Origin: a virus
Strand: one strand, 5' to 3'
Virus record (IMG/VR): IMGVR_UViG_3300037475_000211
Location: 3,330-67,329 of that record
DNA: 64,000 bases
Shown: positions 5,687 to 55,055 of the stretch, one piece after another
How the letters are laid out: every line of letters begins with the position of its first letter
Numbering within the stretch: position 1 is the stretch's first letter
The notes under the pieces: model-generated
Seen by the model: only the letters and a program-made list of their open reading frames with translations
What the model was told of the DNA's origin: nothing
Databases searched by the model: none
Position numbers and translations under genes: made by a program

Positions 5687-5971
5687 ATGACTGAACAATC
5701 AGATTTAGAAAAAGAATTTAAAGAGTCTGCCGAAAAATATTCAAGATTAATTGCTGCTAAAGTAGCACAAGCATGTCAATTGCTTTCTGAAGCTTGTGCT
5801 ATTTCAGAAGAGCATGGCATTCCTTTTGATTCCAATATATCTTTCCTTAGTCAAGGATATGTTCCAGATTCCTTTGCAACTAAATTCAAAGGATTAGATC
5901 GAGAAATAATGTATGAAGTTACTGGAGTGTATAACGAATATGAAGGTTGGCAGCATAGCCAAGTGTGTTAA
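5687..5971 (+). CDS. GW-x-x-S...C tail family protein
   Basis: Ends EGWQHSQVC; close paralog of 6659..6973 (GIPF, GYVP). Confidence 0.7.
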   Translation: MTEQSDLEKEFKESAEKYSRLIAAKVAQACQLLSEACAISEEHGIPFDSNISFLSQGYVPDSFATKFKGLDREIMYEVTGVYNEYEGWQHSQVC

Positions 5972-11325: not shown

Positions 11326-12432
11326 ATGTCAAACTGGGAACCACAAGTAGTAAAAATAGAAAAAGTAATTCATCATCCTAATGGTGATGCTTTAGATATT
11401 GCTTATGTTCTAGGAGATTATCCAGTTGTTGTACGACGAGGCGAATATAAAGTTGATGATTTAGCGGCGTATTTACAAGTTGATACGATAACTCCTGACA
11501 CAAATCAATTTTATTTTTTATGTCCAAAGGAATATGAAAAATATCTAGATGGTGATGAAATTAAACAAAGACAAATAGGTCCAAAATATCCTGTCGGTTC
11601 TGTTCCAGAAAAATATAGAGTTCTTAAGGCAAAGAAAATAAGAAATTTCTATTCAGAAGGAATGTTAGTTCCAGTACCAATTGTTAAACCTATACCTTTA
11701 TCTTTAGGAGATTCAGTTGTAGAAGCTTTATCTCTTAAAAAATATGAGGAAGAAAACGAAGAGAATCTACCTAATGTATTTAAAGCTAAAGGAACTAATG
11801 CTGCCCCACCGCCAAAAGGTTGGAGCATTCCGTATTATGACCTTGAAAATGTTAGGAAATATATTAAGTGTGTTGAAGAAGAAAAAGATATTATTCTTAC
11901 TGAAAAATTGAATGGTAGTAACGCCTCATTTTGTTTTGATGGCAATGATTTAGTTGTTAAGTCTCGTAACTATTATAAAAAATTAGATGAAGAAGATGAT
12001 ATGTGGATCGAGCTTGCTACAAGATTAAATCTAAAAGAGAAGCTATCTAAATATCCTATGATGGTTTTGTTTGGAGAATGTATTAATCAAGTAAAGGGAT
12101 TTAGATATCACACCAATTTAGTTGATGGTAAGTTATTAACAAATCTTATTTGTTTTGATATCTTTGATGTTAAAGCTGGAAAGTATTTAGACTATGATGA
12201 CTTTATCACGATAATAAAAGATCTAGATTTAGAATCTGCACCTTTGTTATATAGAGGTCCTTGGACTTCAAAAGAGGAAATGTATTCTTTTGCCGAAGGT
12301 AAATCTATTTTAAATGATAAAATAGTTAGAGAAGGATGGGTCCTTTCATTAGGTAAGGAAAGATTTGAGCCGAAACTTAATTCTAGATGTAAATTAAAAT
12401 TAATTGGAGAAGGTTATAATTTATCAAAATGA
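11326..12432 (+). CDS. ATP-dependent RNA ligase (Rnl2/DRB0094-like, N-terminal OB/tRNA-binding domain)
   Basis: HPNGDAL N-terminus, motif I TEKLNGSN, FGE, FDI, REGWV, C-terminal KLI. Confidence 0.85.
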   Translation: MSNWEPQVVKIEKVIHHPNGDALDIAYVLGDYPVVVRRGEYKVDDLAAYLQVDTITPDTNQFYFLCPKEYEKYLDGDEIKQRQIGPKYPVGSVPEKYRVLKAKKIRNFYSEGMLVPVPIVKPIPLSLGDSVVEALSLKKYEEENEENLPNVFKAKGTNAAPPPKGWSIPYYDLENVRKYIKCVEEEKDIILTEKLNGSNASFCFDGNDLVVKSRNYYKKLDEEDDMWIELATRLNLKEKLSKYPMMVLFGECINQVKGFRYHTNLVDGKLLTNLICFDIFDVKAGKYLDYDDFITIIKDLDLESAPLLYRGPWTSKEEMYSFAEGKSILNDKIVREGWVLSLGKERFEPKLNSRCKLKLIGEGYNLSK

Positions 12433-29452: not shown

Positions 29453-29527
29453 TGTGGAATCTTCTAACTGGCAGGAAAAACGGCTTTGAACCGTTCAATA
29501 TAGGATCGTTCCCTATTTCCACAACCA
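29453..29527 (+). tRNA. tRNA-Gln(TTG)
   Basis: TGTGGAA/TTCCACA acceptor, AACGG-CTTTGAA-CCGTT anticodon arm, encoded CCA; T loop ATCGTTC is non-canonical. Confidence 0.85.
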
Positions 29528-29532
29528 AACAT

Positions 29533-29615
29533 GGTGATATGGCGTAACTGGTAGCCGCACAATACTTAAAATATTGCGTTAATTCGTGGGGGTTCAAATC
29601 CCTCTATCACCACCA
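29533..29615 (+). tRNA. tRNA-Leu(TAA)
   Basis: GGTGATA/TATCACC acceptor, CAATA-CTTAAAA-TATTG, variable arm, TTCAAAT, ACCA. Confidence 0.92.
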
Positions 29616-36605: not shown

Positions 36606-36977
36606 ATGAAACAAAGTAAGAATATTAATTTAATATTTATCAATGTTGTGGCGGCTTCTTTATTAGCTGGCTGTTCTACACCACAAGATAATAAGCAATG
36701 TGTTGATGAAAATGGTGTAGTGATTGATGAATCTAATTGTAATCCTGATAGTGTTGGTTATAGCCCTCACTATCGCTGGTATTATGGTGGAGGTTTGTTT
36801 AATAGGGGCATGCGAGTAAATGGTGGCAGCTATTATCCTAACAATGGTCGTTCTTATGTAACACCTTCACAAAGAGCTATTTCTGGTGGAGAAAGTGTTT
36901 CTGGAGGATCGAAAGTATCTTCTCCAATTAGTCGTGGTGGATTTGGAACAACCGGGCATTCTTCAGGCGGAGAATAA
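36606..36977 (+). CDS. YgiB/DUF1190-like lipoprotein
   Basis: Lipobox LAGC, two Cys, C-terminal SRGGFG; directly upstream of the Gsp-synthase-like gene. Confidence 0.7.
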   Translation: MKQSKNINLIFINVVAASLLAGCSTPQDNKQCVDENGVVIDESNCNPDSVGYSPHYRWYYGGGLFNRGMRVNGGSYYPNNGRSYVTPSQRAISGGESVSGGSKVSSPISRGGFGTTGHSSGGE

Positions 36978-36978
36978 G

Positions 36979-38127
36979 ATGTTAAGAAAAACTACTTCTG
37001 TAAGAAAAAATTGGGAAAAGACTATTGAATCTCAAGGGTTTTTATTTCATTCAGTTGAAGGTAAACCTTATTGGGATGAGTCTGCATATTATGAGTTTAC
37101 TTCTGCACAAGTAGATGAATTAGAAGCTGCTACTAATACTTTACATGAGATGTGTTTAGCTGCTGTACAGCACGTTATTGACAACAAACTATATGCTAAG
37201 CTTCATATTCCTGAATGGGCAATTCCTTTAATTGAATATTCTTGGAACAACGAAACACCTGCTATTTATGGTCGATTTGATTTTTCTTATGATGGAAAAT
37301 CTTCTCCCAAGATGTTAGAGTATAATGCGGACACTCCGACTTCTTTATTAGAGTCTGGTGTTATTCAGTGGTTTTGGATGAAGGATAAGTTTCCTGCCGC
37401 CGATCAATTTAATTCTATTCATGAAAAATTGGTTGCCAAATGGACTGAGTTAAAAGACTATTTGAATTTTGGTCCCTTATATTTTACTGGACTTGATATG
37501 ATTGAAGACTATATGAATCTTCAATATATGATGGAGACTGCTAAGCAAGGTGGACTTGAAGTAAAGGAAATTAATATTGCCGATATTGGTTGGCATAATA
37601 TTGATCAAAAGTTTATTGATAATGAGTACTATACCATTACTAATATGTTTAAACTTTATCCTTGGGAGTGGTTATTGCATGAAGAATTTGGCAAAAACAT
37701 TGCAGCATGCTTTGATAAGACTTTTTGGATTGAACCACCATGGAAACTTATCCTTTCTAATAAAGGAATTCTACCTATTTTATGGGAATTAAATCCAAAT
37801 CATCCTAACTTGTTGCCGGCATTCTTTGATAAGAATCCTGCTCTTGGAGATAAATTTATTACAAAACCGCTTTATTCTCGTGAAGGTTCTAATATAACTA
37901 TTTTTGATGAATCTTCTAAAGAGCTAAAGGTGATGGAAACTGATGGTGAATATGGTGAAGAAGGAGTTATCTTCCAAAAGTTTGCACCATTAGCTGATTT
38001 TGATGGCAATCATCCAATGATTGGTAGTTGGGTGATTGATGGAGTTTCGGCTGGTATTGGTATCAGAGAAGATAAGACTTTGATTACTGGAAATTTTAGT
38101 CGCTTTGTTCCGCACATCTTTAAATAA
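36979..38127 (+). CDS. Glutathionylspermidine-synthase-like ATP-grasp ligase (YgiC-like)
   Basis: YWDESAYY, YGRFD, EYNADTPTSLLE, FKLYPWEW, SNKGIL, SREG, SRFVPH. Confidence 0.92.
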   Translation: MLRKTTSVRKNWEKTIESQGFLFHSVEGKPYWDESAYYEFTSAQVDELEAATNTLHEMCLAAVQHVIDNKLYAKLHIPEWAIPLIEYSWNNETPAIYGRFDFSYDGKSSPKMLEYNADTPTSLLESGVIQWFWMKDKFPAADQFNSIHEKLVAKWTELKDYLNFGPLYFTGLDMIEDYMNLQYMMETAKQGGLEVKEINIADIGWHNIDQKFIDNEYYTITNMFKLYPWEWLLHEEFGKNIAACFDKTFWIEPPWKLILSNKGILPILWELNPNHPNLLPAFFDKNPALGDKFITKPLYSREGSNITIFDESSKELKVMETDGEYGEEGVIFQKFAPLADFDGNHPMIGSWVIDGVSAGIGIREDKTLITGNFSRFVPHIFK

Positions 38128-45153: not shown

Positions 45154-45238
45154 GCTGTTATGATGGAACTGGCAGACATCCACGTCTAAGAAGCGTGTGC
45201 CGTAAGGTGTACAGGTTCAAGTCCTGTTAACAGCACCA
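45154..45238 (+). tRNA. tRNA-Leu(AAG)
   Basis: GCTGTTA/TAACAGC acceptor, CACGT-CTAAGAA-GCGTG, long variable arm, TTCAAGT, ACCA. Confidence 0.9.
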
Positions 45239-45272: not shown

Positions 45273-46277
45273 ATGCATGAAATTTTATTAGCTAAACCAA
45301 AATTAGATCCTTCATTTATAGATTCCAGTGTGGGTGAACCATATCTTATCAGAGATAATCTCTTTGAGATGTTTACTTGGGATGAAGATGTTGGCGGAGT
45401 AGATTTATCTTATCCTTATCCTCAAGGTTATGAACCATTAGTTAAGATGCTGGAAGATAAACATCAAGCTCCAGTAATAGTAACTAATGGCGCGAAACAA
45501 GCCTTAGGAGCCGCCTTTTATACTCTTCATAAGTTAGGCAAAACTAATATGAAGATGCGTAGTCCTTACTGGGCATTGATTCCACCATTAGCTGATATGC
45601 ACGGAATAACTCCTGTCTTTGATGAATCAAATAAAGATATTAACAGTTATTTGTGTATAGCACCTAATAATCCTGATGGGTGGCATCCACTTAATTTAAA
45701 GGCATTAGCACAAGAATATAAAGATAAAGGTATTCCATTTATACATGATGGGGCGTACTATAATAGGATTTATATTCAAAATCAAGACTATAATGCACCT
45801 ATTGGTGATGTTCAAATTTATACATTCTCTAAATCATTAGGATTATCTGGACTTAGATTAGGCTATGCGGTTTGTCACAATACAGAATTTTATAATCATA
45901 TGTCGGCTTATATGGAAGCTATGACGGTGGGAGTTTCAACGGTATCTCAACGCTATTTGTATAATTTATTACAGGTTATGAATTTAGATAAGCCTTTGAC
46001 TGAAGCGTTTGAAGATAAATGCTTTGAGGAATTAAATCAAAATAAATATCTTTGTGATAATATAAATCCTGAAGTATTAGAAGTTCCCATGGAGGCAGTT
46101 CAAATGCCAGGTATGTTTGGTTGGTATAAAGTTGGACCTAAGGCTGACTTTAATAAAGCAAAAATACATTTTGTTGGTGGTAAACTATTTGGAGCTGAGG
46201 ATATGGTTAGACTTAACTTAGCTTTCAAAAAAGAAACAATTAAAGAGATAGTTAACAGATTAAATAATTTAGTATGA
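45273..46277 (+). CDS. PLP-dependent aminotransferase, class I/II
   Basis: TNGAKQAL, PNNPDG, DGAY, FSKSLGLSGLRLG, VRL. Confidence 0.88.
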   Translation: MHEILLAKPKLDPSFIDSSVGEPYLIRDNLFEMFTWDEDVGGVDLSYPYPQGYEPLVKMLEDKHQAPVIVTNGAKQALGAAFYTLHKLGKTNMKMRSPYWALIPPLADMHGITPVFDESNKDINSYLCIAPNNPDGWHPLNLKALAQEYKDKGIPFIHDGAYYNRIYIQNQDYNAPIGDVQIYTFSKSLGLSGLRLGYAVCHNTEFYNHMSAYMEAMTVGVSTVSQRYLYNLLQVMNLDKPLTEAFEDKCFEELNQNKYLCDNINPEVLEVPMEAVQMPGMFGWYKVGPKADFNKAKIHFVGGKLFGAEDMVRLNLAFKKETIKEIVNRLNNLV

Positions 46278-50975: not shown

Positions 50976-52088
50976 ATGAAAAAATATATTACACTATTGA
51001 TTGCCGTACTTGCTACGGTCTTTACGGCGAATGCTTTTGCATTTACTCCCCCAGATAAGCCTGCTAGTGGCTGGTATATCCTTGATCAAGCCAATAAATT
51101 AACTGAAGATCAAAAAACCAATCTCAATAAAAAGATTGATGGAATTAATAAAAATACTAAAAATGAATTTGGTGTTTTAATTATTCAGTCAATGGATGGA
51201 GATAACATTGAAGATGTTGCTCAGAATACTTTCCGAGCTTGGGGAGTTGGTAAGGCTGGATTAAATAACGGAGTACTATTAGTTATTTCTGTAGGTGATC
51301 GTAAGATGCGATTGCAAACTGGCAAAGGTGTTGAAGGTGATTTGCCAGACTTACGAGCAAAAGATATTTTAGATGAAAATCTTAAACCTTTCCTTAAGAA
51401 GGGAGATTATTATGGCGGTATTGATTCTACTATTAGTGCAGCCTCTTCTTTCTTAGAGAGTAGAGCTAATGCTCCAGTGGAAACTGTATCAAATACTTCT
51501 GGTGCAACTTCGAAAAATTCTGGAGTGGAATGGCTAATAGTATTATTGTTCTTGGGAATTTTTGGTGGAGTTGGTCTTATTTCTTGGCTTGTAAGCCGAA
51601 GTAAACGTAAACGAGAAGAAGAAAGCAATCGTCTTTATGAGTCTTCAAGAATCTTTGCGCTTCAGCAAGAAAGAGCTAGACTTCAAGAAGCTATGTTCGC
51701 AAAACCTTATCACATAGATAATAGCTTTACTTCAACCCACACTTCAAAAACTGAAATTTCAGCAACTGCCATTGGTGTTGGTGCAGTAGCCGCCGCAGCG
51801 GGTATTGGTGGTATTGCAATAGCAACAACTGCAGTTAGTCGTGCTGCTGAAGCTAAGAAGCGTAAAGCTGCTGAAGAACGAGAGGCTGAAGCTGTTAAGC
51901 GTAAAAAGGAAGAAGAAGATGCGACGGCGCGTAGACGTAGTGAAGAAAGTTCATATTCGTCATATTCTTCTTCAGATAGTGGAAGCAGCTATAGTAGCTA
52001 TGATAGTGGAAGTAGTTCCAGCTATGATAGTGGTGGAGGATTTGGTGGTGGTGACAGCGGCGGCGACGGCGGGTCTAGTGATTTCTAG
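50976..52088 (+). CDS. TPM-domain (YgcG-like) membrane protein
   Basis: Signal peptide, DQANKL, WGVGK...NNGVLL, G.G.EG.LPD; Gly/Ser tail ending GGSSDF. Confidence 0.88.
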   Translation: MKKYITLLIAVLATVFTANAFAFTPPDKPASGWYILDQANKLTEDQKTNLNKKIDGINKNTKNEFGVLIIQSMDGDNIEDVAQNTFRAWGVGKAGLNNGVLLVISVGDRKMRLQTGKGVEGDLPDLRAKDILDENLKPFLKKGDYYGGIDSTISAASSFLESRANAPVETVSNTSGATSKNSGVEWLIVLLFLGIFGGVGLISWLVSRSKRKREEESNRLYESSRIFALQQERARLQEAMFAKPYHIDNSFTSTHTSKTEISATAIGVGAVAAAAGIGGIAIATTAVSRAAEAKKRKAAEEREAEAVKRKKEEEDATARRRSEESSYSSYSSSDSGSSYSSYDSGSSSSYDSGGGFGGGDSGGDGGSSDF

Positions 52089-53374: not shown

Positions 53375-54262
53375 AGTAATATACTAAGTATGATTAACTT
53401 AAATCTTAAAATTGGCGATAAAGTTGTTGTAAGTGGTCGTATGCCTCCCGCTCAAGTAATTGATATTATTTATGATCCTACTACAGATCGAACAGTAATT
53501 ACTATTTTGTGGGGAAATAATGAAAAGAGTACTGTTTATGCTCATGATGAAAATAGTGTGTGGTATAAATTTACAGGTAGCAACTAATGGATAATAAAAA
53601 AGTTTTAATACAATGTGCTGGAAGAACTGCTTTTGATTTAGCAATGAAAGTTGCTTTTACTTCAGAGTATGATAAAAAAGATGAAGCACCCAGAAGGAAA
53701 GCCACTCATTATTTTGAAGACTCAGAAAAAGGGTTAGTCCTTCTTTGGTCAGAAGATAAATCAGTTAATTCAGTTAAATTGCCAGTAGCTTTAGATTGGG
53801 CTGGTGCTGCTGAATTAGCTTGGCAATGGTTAGCAGAACAACCTACAGAAAAATATCAAGACTATTGTGATCATGATGGAAGTAATAGTGAAGGGTTTCG
53901 AGTGTATAATGAGGAATGGGGTCATGTTAAATCACACTATGCTATTATAGCAGTTCTTCCTATTTGGGCTTGGCACGGCAAGTAATGGAAAATCCCGCAA
54001 CCTGGAATAAATGTATTAAGATTTTAAATGAATCTCTTAATTATGGAAATGATATTTTACTAACTGTAGATAAGGTTTTAGAAATATTAATTAATAATGA
54101 GTTTCTTGTGGGTGAAGATTTTGATAATAATTCAATTAGAGAAATAATTAATAAAGCTTTAATTGATTTTAAATATGAAAATGATAACCAGTGTTGTGGA
54201 AACAGTATTGGTAATAAGATCTATTTTAGACTTAAAGCTTTAGGGATTATAGATTAATTTAT

Positions 54263-54378
54263 GGTGAGATGGCGGAAAGGCGTACGCGGCGGGTTTATCT
54301 AAGTATATTTAGATAGACTTGCTATACTTGGAAATATACATCTAAGTATTATAGGTTCGAATCCTATTTTCACCACCA
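54263..54378 (+). ncRNA. tRNA-Leu-like RNA with a 15-bp hairpin in place of the anticodon arm
   Basis: GGTGAGA/TTTCACC acceptor, GCG/CGC D arm, ATAGG-TTCGAAT-CCTAT T arm, ACCA end; GCGGGTTTATCTAAG-TATA-TTTAGATAGACTTGC. Confidence 0.75.
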
Positions 54379-54675
54379 ATGAATTGTTTAATAAAACAAA
54401 GAAAAGAAAGAGAAGCTCAAAAAGAATCAGAGGTTCAAAAATTTTTTAAACTAGCCAAATTAAAATTGAGAAATGATATTAGAGATATATTAATGTCAGA
54501 TCCATTTGAATGGAGTAGCTCTGGTATACCGGGGACATTTATCATTCATATTTATTCTAAGTATGCTTCTGCATTTTTTGATCAACAAAAAGATGATTGG
54601 GAATATTATATATCAAATTTAAGAGTATCAGAAGATTATTTTTTTAAATATTTAAAATTGAAAGCGTTTATTTAG
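54379..54675 (+). CDS. Small protein with C-terminal tag
   Basis: Ends YLKLKAFI. Confidence 0.55.
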   Translation: MNCLIKQRKEREAQKESEVQKFFKLAKLKLRNDIRDILMSDPFEWSSSGIPGTFIIHIYSKYASAFFDQQKDDWEYYISNLRVSEDYFFKYLKLKAFI

Positions 54676-54677
54676 TT

Positions 54678-55055
54678 ATGCAAATAAAAATGTTTAAGTC
54701 TAAAATTCATCGTGCCACTTTAACTGGCGCCAATTTAGACTATGAAGGTTCCATTAAAGTTGATTCTGATTTATTAGATGCTTCTAACATTTTTGAATAT
54801 GAGGCGGTTTGGATTTGGAATATTAATAACGGTAATCGTCTTATGACTTATGCTTTACGAGGCGATCCAGGTACTGGTATTATTGAATTAAATGGTAGTG
54901 CTGCACGTCTTGGTCATAAAGGAGATTTGGTTATCATTTCGACCTTTGCTGACATGACTCCTTTGGAAGCAAAGGAACACAAACCGATCGTTGTTTTGGT
55001 AGATGGATTTAATAAAGTAAAGTCTATTTTAAATAGATCAGGAGGATTAGAATGA
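54678..55055 (+). CDS. panD: Aspartate 1-decarboxylase
   Basis: KSKIHRAT.T.ANLDYEGSI (G-S autocleavage site), NG.RL.TY, LNGSAAR..GD.VII. Confidence 0.95.
   Translation: MQIKMFKSKIHRATLTGANLDYEGSIKVDSDLLDASNIFEYEAVWIWNINNGNRLMTYALRGDPGTGIIELNGSAARLGHKGDLVIISTFADMTPLEAKEHKPIVVLVDGFNKVKSILNRSGGLE

Follow-up and report, generated by a model that had tools for sequence, protein, structure and literature searches.

What would a phage do with a leucine transfer RNA (tRNA) that has no anticodon loop? The question is raised by a gene of 116 nucleotides (nt) at positions 54263-54378 of a 64,000-nt stretch of virus DNA, here called the window, which forms the last 64 kilobases (kb) of the 67,329-base-pair (bp) IMG/VR record IMGVR_UViG_3300037475_000211 (CheckV completeness 15%). 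A first-pass annotation of the window had described a tRNA-Leu-shaped RNA gene without an anticodon loop, and this description is borne out by the fold and by the tRNA finder ARAGORN, which in its default mode does not call the element at 54263-54378. We conclude with moderate confidence that the element is a functional and conserved tRNA mimic, which does not decode, is processed like a tRNA and can probably be charged with leucine. Codon reading is almost certainly ruled out, since an RNA lacking the anticodon loop cannot pair with a codon and has to act outside decoding. The element is composed of the following parts:

54263-54378, plus strand: the whole tRNA-Leu-like RNA gene, 116 nt including the encoded CCA, supported by sequence, fold, the Rfam family RF00005 and a syntenic homologue
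54263-54269, plus strand: 5' strand of the acceptor stem, GGTGAGA, pairing with 54368-54374; two of the seven pairs are changed on both sides in the homologue
54272-54287, plus strand: D arm of the tRNA-Leu type, a 3-bp stem GCG/CGC with a 10-nt loop containing A14, A15 and G18G19
54288-54323, plus strand: long closed hairpin in the position of the anticodon arm, G26-U61 plus 15 bp, with the apical loop UAUA
54324-54349, plus strand: second hairpin in the position of the variable arm, 9 bp with the 8-nt loop AAUAUACA
54351-54367, plus strand: canonical T arm ATAGG-TTCGAAT-CCTAT, supported by fold and Rfam; two of the five pairs are changed on both sides in the homologue
54368-54378, plus strand: 3' strand of the acceptor stem, TTTCACC, followed by the discriminator A73 and the encoded CCA; the ATG of the next open reading frame (ORF) is at 54379

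The acceptor strands GGTGAGA and TTTCACC form 7 bp including one G-U pair, followed by TG and the D arm GCG-GAAAGGCGTA-CGC. A 5-bp anticodon stem with a 7-nt loop and U33 is not present; its place is taken by the strands GCGGGTTTATCTAAG and TTTAGATAGACTTGC pairing over 15 bp, four of them G-U, with TATA closing the helix and positions 33-36 (U-UAU) being themselves base-paired. The second stem, ATACTTGGA against TCTAAGTAT, comprises 9 bp with an 8-nt loop. This cloverleaf is both the minimum-free-energy (MFE) and the centroid structure of the 116-nt single strand, the MFE fold adding the pair G26-U61 and leaving G41 and U46 unpaired, thus resulting in a hairpin of 15-16 bp with a loop of 4-6 nt. 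Sequence and MFE fold thereby confirm all parts named in the first-pass annotation, i.e. acceptor stem, A73-CCA, Leu-type D arm, T arm, 15-bp TATA hairpin and 9-bp variable arm. With -41.9 kcal/mol the fold is far more stable than 200 dinucleotide shuffles of the 116-nt element (-23.0 +/- 3.1 kcal/mol; z = -6.04), none of which is equally stable. The Rfam tRNA model (RF00005) spans 54263-54375 from end to end with 35.3 bits (gathering score 29), and this alignment accommodates its long insertions in the anticodon region and in the variable region. Apart from tRNA, no Rfam family matches the element, and no intron family is found in the window. ARAGORN reports three ordinary tRNAs in the window, i.e. 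Gln-UUG, Leu-UAA and Leu-AAG, and no transfer-messenger RNA (tmRNA), the element having no G3:U70 and a closed helix as its middle. No ORF of at least 40 amino acids (aa) covers the element on either strand. A search for an antisense target revealed no recurrence of an element 13-mer or longer on either strand of the 67-kb record, and the three 12-mer recurrences found there are close to chance level.

Two further observations concern these data. A 10-nt direct repeat, ATCTAAGTAT, occurs at 54297-54306 (plus strand) and at 54340-54349, the second copy being the 3' strand of the second hairpin; the 5' strand of that hairpin is able to pair with either copy, making an alternative fold possible, and the homologue has only a 7-nt repeat arranged differently. 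Runs of the Rfam tRNA model with different filter settings each returned three tRNAs, one run without Leu-AAG and the other without Gln-UUG (29453-29527, 45154-45238).

Whether the fold is under selection can be judged from a homologue. The comparison draws on these further features of the window:

53985-54257, plus strand: upstream ORF of 90 aa (MENPATW...), 64% identical in the relative and in the same order; it led to the relative
54379-54675, plus strand: downstream small ORF, in the same order in the relative
54678-55055, plus strand: aspartate 1-decarboxylase PanD, in the same order and 84% identical in the relative
29533-29615: the phage's own tRNA-Leu(UAA), the comparison tRNA within the window
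11326-12432: RNA ligase gene

The sole relative found, reached via the upstream ORF, is a complete phage contig of 447,763 bp (L001) with the syntenic order 90-aa ORF, RNA element, small ORF and PanD. Its element (L001:3279-3395) has 117 nt, scores 28.4 bits with the Rfam tRNA model, folds with z = -3.06, starts 5 nt past the upstream stop and is followed by the next ATG 2 nt after CCA. It folds into an acceptor stem, the identical D stem, a helix of 11 bp that contains a single A-A mismatch and is capped by a 9-nt loop, then another hairpin of GGG/CCC and UGUA/UACA (3+4 bp separated by an internal loop) with the 7-nt loop AUUAUAC, a T arm and ACCA. The two elements, 116 and 117 nt long, align without gaps across the first 102 columns. 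A covariance model built from the sequence of the window element alone (R1) finds the relative's element with 49.3 bits (E 4e-11), the ordinary tRNAs of both phages reaching 23-33 bits, and no further copy of the element in either phage record.

In the two-sequence alignment 95.8% of the cells pair, compared to 33-49% after a shift of the 3' partners by 1-3 columns. Changes on both sides are seen in 10 of 39 pairs, two in the acceptor stem, four in the long hairpin, two in the second hairpin and two in the T stem; these counts come from two sequences with three unpaired cells and from an alignment fitted to the structure of the model. Within the long hairpin four of the 15 pairs are changed on both sides, two on one side, and two are unpaired in the homologue. 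The first-pass annotation had argued that the full pairing of this stem speaks against simple decay and had named missing compensatory changes in homologs as the refuting observation; the four double changes, seen in one homologue, agree with that argument. The loops have GUAUA in the first hairpin and A-W-UAUAC in the second in common. The downstream small ORF, by comparison, is only about 25% identical between the phages, and its N-terminal parts are not conserved. Retention of the helices and of the length to within 1 nt, while the neighbouring small ORF drifted, makes neutral decay unlikely. Judged by this comparison, the element is a selected RNA gene, the fold of which is kept by compensatory change.

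Attempts to extend the comparison beyond this pair covered several collections. A nucleotide search of the 3-kb neighbourhood against isolate phages gave no match, and that of the element alone produced no more than a chance hit of 39 nt. When viral contigs were screened for close relatives with exact and with degenerate patterns, nothing beyond the one relative came up. Locus searches by the downstream ORF found none, by the upstream ORF one viral locus and by PanD the same relative only. Alignment of the upstream ORF to metagenome contigs led to the same 447-kb contig and to three distant loci without a tRNA-like RNA.

The body of the element is that of a bacterial class II tRNA-Leu. Its acceptor GGUGAGA/UUUCACC matches the GGUGAUA/UAUCACC of the phage's own tRNA-Leu(UAA) at six of seven positions on each strand, and the element shares with the Leu tRNAs of both phages the start U8-G9-G10-C11-G12, G18G19, the T loop, A73 and the encoded CCA. 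Nearly identical acceptor, G10-C11-G12 D stem and long variable arm are thus the points of likeness, whereas tRNA-Leu(UAA) has a 5-bp stem with the 7-nt loop CUUAAAA where the element has a closed helix of 15-16 bp, and the element differs further by its variable arm of 9 bp and by a D loop shorter by 1-2 nt. These sequences suggest that the element derives from tRNA-Leu, most likely as a copy of the tRNA-Leu(UAA) that the phage itself carries.

Can such a body be charged? In Escherichia coli leucine identity is described as residing in A73, the A15-U48 pair, G18G19, A20a and the contacts between D and T loops, leucylation being indifferent to the anticodon and to the sequence of the long variable arm (PMC9976931); tRNA-Leu variants without both arms stay charged, a result which the same source credits to Larkin et al. 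2002. Both copies of the element have the discriminator A73 (A at 54375 in the window), and A15 with U48, G18G19 and the nucleotides of the predicted D/T contacts (G18:U55, G19:C56, U54:A58) are present in both. The element should be chargeable with leucine because bacterial leucyl-tRNA synthetase (LeuRS) reads A73 and the D/T elbow, ignoring both anticodon and variable arm. We therefore consider that the LeuRS of the host probably leucylates the element, the identity set used being that of E. coli. The earlier suggestion of an RNA which is non-decoding yet possibly leucylated fits the conserved A73, A15:U48 and G18G19, and the decoy or aminoacyl-donor role proposed along with it is one that the element may have. 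The complete relative contains no gene for an L/F-transferase, a class Ia synthetase or RtcB, and it encodes two CCA-adding-type nucleotidyltransferases.

The element belongs to a kind of RNA that is known but unexplained, i.e. the tRNA-like stable RNAs of phages. Those of T4 and T5 have been mapped for decades without their function being explained. Closest is T5 RNA1 (misc_RNA T5s03, NC_005859 30501-30644), annotated as 'tRNA-like stable RNA with unknown functions', as is T5 RNA2; RNA2 and RNA3 of T5 are also among the closest known systems. Like the element, T5 RNA1 is encoded by a phage amid or close to tRNA genes and has acceptor-like paired ends and a Leu-type D arm (UGCCGGAAUUGGUAGACGG). 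In its fold the anticodon position is occupied by a long helix and that of the variable arm by a separate hairpin, the T arm is canonical and an anticodon loop is absent; Rfam sees it as a weak tRNA (24 bits). It differs by its overall length of 144 nt, a longer, branched helix and the lack of an encoded CCA, and it comes from a 122-kb siphovirus of E. coli rather than from a soil phage of about 450 kb. Stable accumulation is recorded in the T5 annotation and is predicted for the element. Species 1 RNA of T4 (rnaC, NC_000866 70908-71046, 'small, stable RNA') likewise lies beside a tRNA cluster and has a T arm and long helices, but it is much less tRNA-like, its fold having no recognisable D arm or 7-bp acceptor stem; it has no RF00005 match at E <= 1 and only a 17.5-bit match to tRNA-Sec, which is below threshold. 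An artificial counterpart exists in the 'tRNA scaffold' that Ponchon and Dardel reportedly engineered in 2007, in which cargo RNA replaces the anticodon arm and which is said to give a stable, processed RNA in E. coli. It shares with the element the intact acceptor/D/T frame with a foreign helix for the anticodon arm; unlike this artificial construct the element is natural and conserved, and its frame may have a stabilising role. In the literature covered, which leaves most subscription journals and the original T4 and T5 papers aside, no hairpin-capped tRNA-Leu look-alikes of phages are described beyond the T4/T5 annotations and work on the bacterial Y RNAs called YrlA. The three bacterial families of tRNA mimics presented in a 2026 preprint are, in the portion accessible to us, RNAs other than the element.

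Oversized frames of this type are widespread. A pattern of a Leu-type D arm, 55-85 nt and a T loop gave at least 116 stretches in viral contigs (122 matches, two at locus edges). Among the matches listed, 113 of 120 have six or seven of the seven acceptor pairs, resulting in 100 distinct sequences of 105-135 nt, a set biased by its search pattern; 52 of these begin with AGUCAGG and two encode CCA. A normal anticodon arm after position 26 is seen in only one of the 100; a helix of at least 8 bp starting from position 26 or 27, as in the element, is present in 18, and 81 are otherwise arranged. Rfam gave 12 matches on nine sampled loci, all tRNA, seven of them long look-alikes at 33-41 bits and five of ordinary length at 37-57 bits. 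The look-alikes occur both within tRNA arrays and solitary, including in small phages rated 100% complete. No shared protein neighbour was found across the 100 look-alikes, the largest cluster comprising five of 75, and an AGUCAGG-type element searched against isolate phages at the nucleotide level gave T-arm matches only. Contigs of prokaryotic metagenome-assembled genomes (MAGs) yielded ten more loci with oversized Leu-type look-alikes, none a close relative of the element. A control pattern with the common class I D arm gave at least 115 stretches; the matches listed comprise 75 distinct acceptor-paired sequences out of 101, two of these 75 have a normal anticodon arm by a simple test, and several are eukaryote-type tRNA-Tyr(GUA) with an intron at position 37/38. 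The control being also rich in oversized frames, such frames are not confined to Leu bodies.

Several observations from these searches stand on their own. The AGUCAGG type (L038-L153, e.g. L043:5738-5865 and L119:1087-1212), from uncultured phages, has the near-constant frame AGUCAGG...GGCGGAAUGGUAGACGC...CCUGACU around mutually unrelated middles, and several such genes adjoin terminase genes, lying either 3-47 nt before the start of the one for the large subunit or directly after the one for the small subunit. A Chitinophagales MAG contig (L269:584-1862, minus strand) has four oversized tRNA-Leu-like elements within 1.3 kb. A shared module, composed of a hairpin whose loop resembles CAUGUUYGUG and of ACAGCAA(U) after it, is found inside tRNA frames of two different body types and looks like a distinct conserved RNA domain (L049:5616-5739 and 5799-5898, L085, L090, L175, L222, L231, L183, L220 and L210), its copies sometimes lying side by side on one contig. 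The tRNA-Tyr(GUA) genes with a eukaryote-type intron are in contigs labelled as giant-virus MAGs (L212, L229, L230 and others).

As a tentative generalisation, to which we give limited credence, intact tRNA frames, often of the Leu type, may serve many kinds of phages as natural scaffolds, which would mature and perhaps be charged as tRNAs are but carry a non-decoding module instead of the anticodon arm, so that the element, T5 RNA1 and hundreds of oversized genes would form one effector class. According to this proposal tRNA-Leu bodies would often be used as the scaffold because LeuRS ignores the anticodon. If it is true, the class would act on tRNA-recognising proteins of host or phage, for example as immunity decoys or as adaptors for phage Ro60 or similar RNA-repair proteins.

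For the element itself we favour a model that builds on what sequence and fold show: the frame of acceptor, A73-CCA, D arm, T arm and elbow is kept, one long uninterrupted helix has closed off the anticodon loop, and the variable arm has grown to a hairpin of 9 bp. The element fills the gap between two plus-strand ORFs, 5 nt past the upstream stop and 0 nt before the next ATG, and promoter- and terminator-like sites occur near it at the background rate (23 versus 22.4 expected). The tight spacing and the background-level sites suggest that it probably shares a transcript with the flanking genes, from which processing sets it free. Enzymes of the host's tRNA processing would excise it, RNase P making the 5' end and the 3' end being trimmed to CCA. 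A stable RNA of about 116 nt would then accumulate, as for T5 RNA1, and leucine would be added by the host LeuRS. Through its tRNA body and its two exposed helices the element would bind, or keep occupied, a protein recognising tRNA or tRNA-Leu, acting as a decoy or an adaptor, with the helices being the part that gives specificity to the protein binding. The arm sequences diverge between the phages while length and pairing are kept, which argues for recognition of shape rather than for antisense pairing. For any particular partner, i.e. a decoy in tRNA-directed defence, an adaptor of Ro60, or a means of sequestering a modification enzyme or a synthetase, our confidence is much lower than for the mimic as such.

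Several points weigh against this model and keep our confidence in it moderate. The conservation is seen in a single homologue, and an alignment fitted to a model favours pairing. Transcription, ends, stability and charging of the element are deduced from sequence and by analogy, and leucylation would depend on the LeuRS of the host. The complete relative encodes neither LeuRS nor L/F-transferase. The D loop GG-C-G-U-A places G at the likely A20a site, whereas the relative's GG-U-A-A-A has A there, the numbering being uncertain in the shortened loop. The 9-bp variable arm together with G2-C71 could draw seryl-tRNA synthetase (SerRS) instead. The likeness to T5 RNA1 is architectural only, as R1 lists only ordinary tRNAs in the T5 locus at E <= 0.001. 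The gene neighbourhood points to no partner protein, and the next ORF starting 0-2 nt after CCA fits a role in messenger RNA (mRNA) processing equally well.

This last point leads to the alternative that survives best, although we regard it as unlikely, namely that the element is a tRNA-shaped punctuation mark at which RNase P and the enzymes of tRNA 3' ends cut a polycistronic transcript. The upstream mRNA would then end 5 nt past its stop, the downstream ORF would be freed nearly leaderless, and the middle of the element would only have to be compact. The exact filling of the gap in both phages (5 nt before and 0 nt after the element in the window, 5 nt and 2 nt in the relative) and the promoter- and terminator-like sites at background level suit this reading, many elements of the wider set lie 3-30 nt before an ORF, some directly by terminase genes, and a hypervariable middle in a constant tRNA frame is what a pure signal would permit. 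RNase P, however, requires little more than an acceptor/T minihelix, and a cutting signal leaves the D arm, the elbow, the retention of A73 and CCA and the compensated helices of the middle unexplained. Position alone has no discriminating power, as ordinary tRNA genes in phage operons are processed alike, and the true start of the window's downstream ORF may be further in, its N-terminus being unconserved. T5 RNA1, moreover, is on record as a stable RNA and not as a by-product.

Rather less probable is a precursor tRNA bearing an intron, in which about 17 nt (window) or 14 nt (relative) would be removed from the long hairpin, leaving a 7-nt loop. The first-pass annotation had considered such an excisable insert, repaired by the phage RNA ligase. 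Both copies have N32-U33-U-A-U after the first 5 bp and A-U-A near the 3' side, and every deletion leaving 7 nt gives one anticodon for both copies, i.e. UAA (Leu) for a cut after position 35 and UAU (Ile) for a cut after 36, UAA suiting the Leu body. A phage RNA ligase is present, two further tRNA-shaped genes of the relative carry additional sequence in the anticodon stem, and ARAGORN calls no ordinary tRNA-Asn or tRNA-Ser in the 20 of the relative's 30 tRNA loci that were scanned. To our knowledge, on the other hand, no bacterial or phage route removes an insert of 14-17 nt, and group I introns, with a catalytic core and about 200 nt or more, are longer by an order of magnitude. There is no bulge-helix-bulge, the helix being fully paired in the window and having one A-A mismatch and no bulges in the relative. 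The intron mode of ARAGORN yields Ser(GCU) for the window element, nothing for that of the relative and scattered anticodons over 100 look-alikes. The relative, furthermore, already carries at least three tRNA-Leu(UAA) and two tRNA-Ile(UAU) genes. The conserved UAU/AUA block amounts to three invariant base pairs of the helix; U-UAU at positions 33-36 of both copies, paired with the conserved AUA, could be left over from the former anticodon loop, or it could be no more than these three pairs. Absent bulge-helix-bulge, insufficient length for a group I intron and inconsistent ARAGORN intron calls thus speak against the excisable insert, and from the proposed repair the ligase gene (11326-12432) stands, with no link to the element found.

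A partnership with Ro60 deserves mention because the relative encodes a clear Ro60/Rsr orthologue (L158:865-2445; Ro60 vWA 58 bits, TROVE 32.5 bits, Deinococcus Rsr 2nvo E 5e-12), located 13.7 kb downstream of its own copy of the element and on the same strand. In this very unlikely scenario the element would be a Y-RNA-like partner of phage Ro60/Rsr, its extended 'anticodon' helix tethering Rsr to another factor and the YrlA topology being circularly permuted. YrlA RNAs are described as tRNA mimics, that of Mycobacterium smegmatis being cut by RNase P and receiving CCA, and their genes as lying within about 4 kb of rsr and as having the motif GNCGAAN0-1G (PMC4201824). The element resembles YrlA and other bacterial Y RNAs in its tRNA-like D/T elbow with an extended helix in the direction of the anticodon, and no RNA family was found next to the relative's rsr. 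However, YrlA has its termini in the long helix, a closed 'acceptor' stem-loop, the GNCGAAN0-1G motif and proximity to rsr, none of which applies to the element. The distance is 13.7 kb compared to about 4 kb for YrlA, a regular-expression search finds the motif in neither copy, and the element has the arm order of a tRNA and an open ACCA end, as opposed to the T-then-D order of YrlA. Co-occurrence was examined in 49 of the 116 look-alike loci together with L001, and only one of these 49 other phage records with oversized Leu-type look-alikes has a Ro60 vWA match, which is sub-threshold; the record of the window ends before the site at which rsr would be expected. A survey of jumbo phages includes Ro60 with a tRNA-like partner but, in its accessible part, no hairpin-capped tRNA-Leu gene (PMC7824862).

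A decaying pseudogene, i.e. a disabled copy of tRNA-Leu drifting without function, is highly improbable. It would account for the loss of decoding, for the silence of ARAGORN and for the relative's copy having a bulged T stem and falling below the Rfam threshold (28.4 versus 29 bits). Yet all helices are kept through ten double changes although the neighbouring proteins are down to 64% and about 25% identity, the total length agrees to within 1 nt, and the element sits so tightly between the ORFs of this gene-dense phage that no bases are left over. That the second hairpin is the true anticodon arm of a still decoding tRNA can practically be dismissed: the relative's 7-nt loop AUUAUAC does have U in second place and UAU in its centre, and A-W-UAUAC occupies the same alignment columns in both copies, but the window loop has 8 nt with A instead of U in second place, the stem changes from 9 bp in the window to 3+4 bp with an internal loop in the relative, and the hairpin lies 1 nt from the T stem in the position of the variable arm, from which by tRNA geometry the codon is out of reach.

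A non-decoding tRNA mimic thus remains our preferred explanation. The element provides a clean, minimal case of the phage tRNA-like RNAs, combining a full tRNA-Leu frame with a simple closed helix and a CCA encoded in the gene, and its diverged partner reveals which of its parts face selection. Phage contigs commonly contain oversized frames lacking an anticodon arm, which tRNA finders overlook or label wrongly, so that tRNA counts in phage annotation are inflated or distorted. If such frames are chargeable yet non-decoding, they would offer phages a new route to synthetases, EF-Tu and enzymes modifying or cleaving tRNA, which is topical as many bacterial defences target tRNAs.

The window has a G+C content of about 30%, and nearly all genes are on its plus strand. 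Besides the RNA ligase, recognisable genes encode a T4-type RNase H and a NUDIX protein. Host-like metabolic genes are found at 36886-38127 (glutathionylspermidine synthase-like), 54678-55055 (PanD), 45273-46277 (class I/II aminotransferase) and 50976-52088 (TPM-domain phosphatase). Near-identical sequence is present in DNA runs of soil metagenomes; the three DNA runs compared showed only the probable source of the stretch and a second soil run, which contains a 151-nt piece over 54170-54320 without joints, and no RNA run is listed as containing the stretch.

The relative has further unusual tRNA genes. A 134-nt tRNA-shaped gene (L019:2266-2402), with about 58 nt between CGCGG and CCGCG, and one of 90 nt (L011:1501-1590), with an 11-bp anticodon helix and labelled by ARAGORN with a 4-base anticodon, have extra sequence within the anticodon stem. 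Four class I tRNAs of 84-91 nt have an extra hairpin arm, i.e. Lys-CUU, Gly-UCC, Gln-UUG and Ala-UGC (L004:1404-1487, L007:2182-2265, L021:1408-1496 and L003:2486-2576). Two adjacent tRNAs with the anticodon CUA (L006:1422-1496 and 1501-1576), i.e. amber suppressors labelled Pyl by ARAGORN, hint at recoding of TAG in part of the relative's genome.

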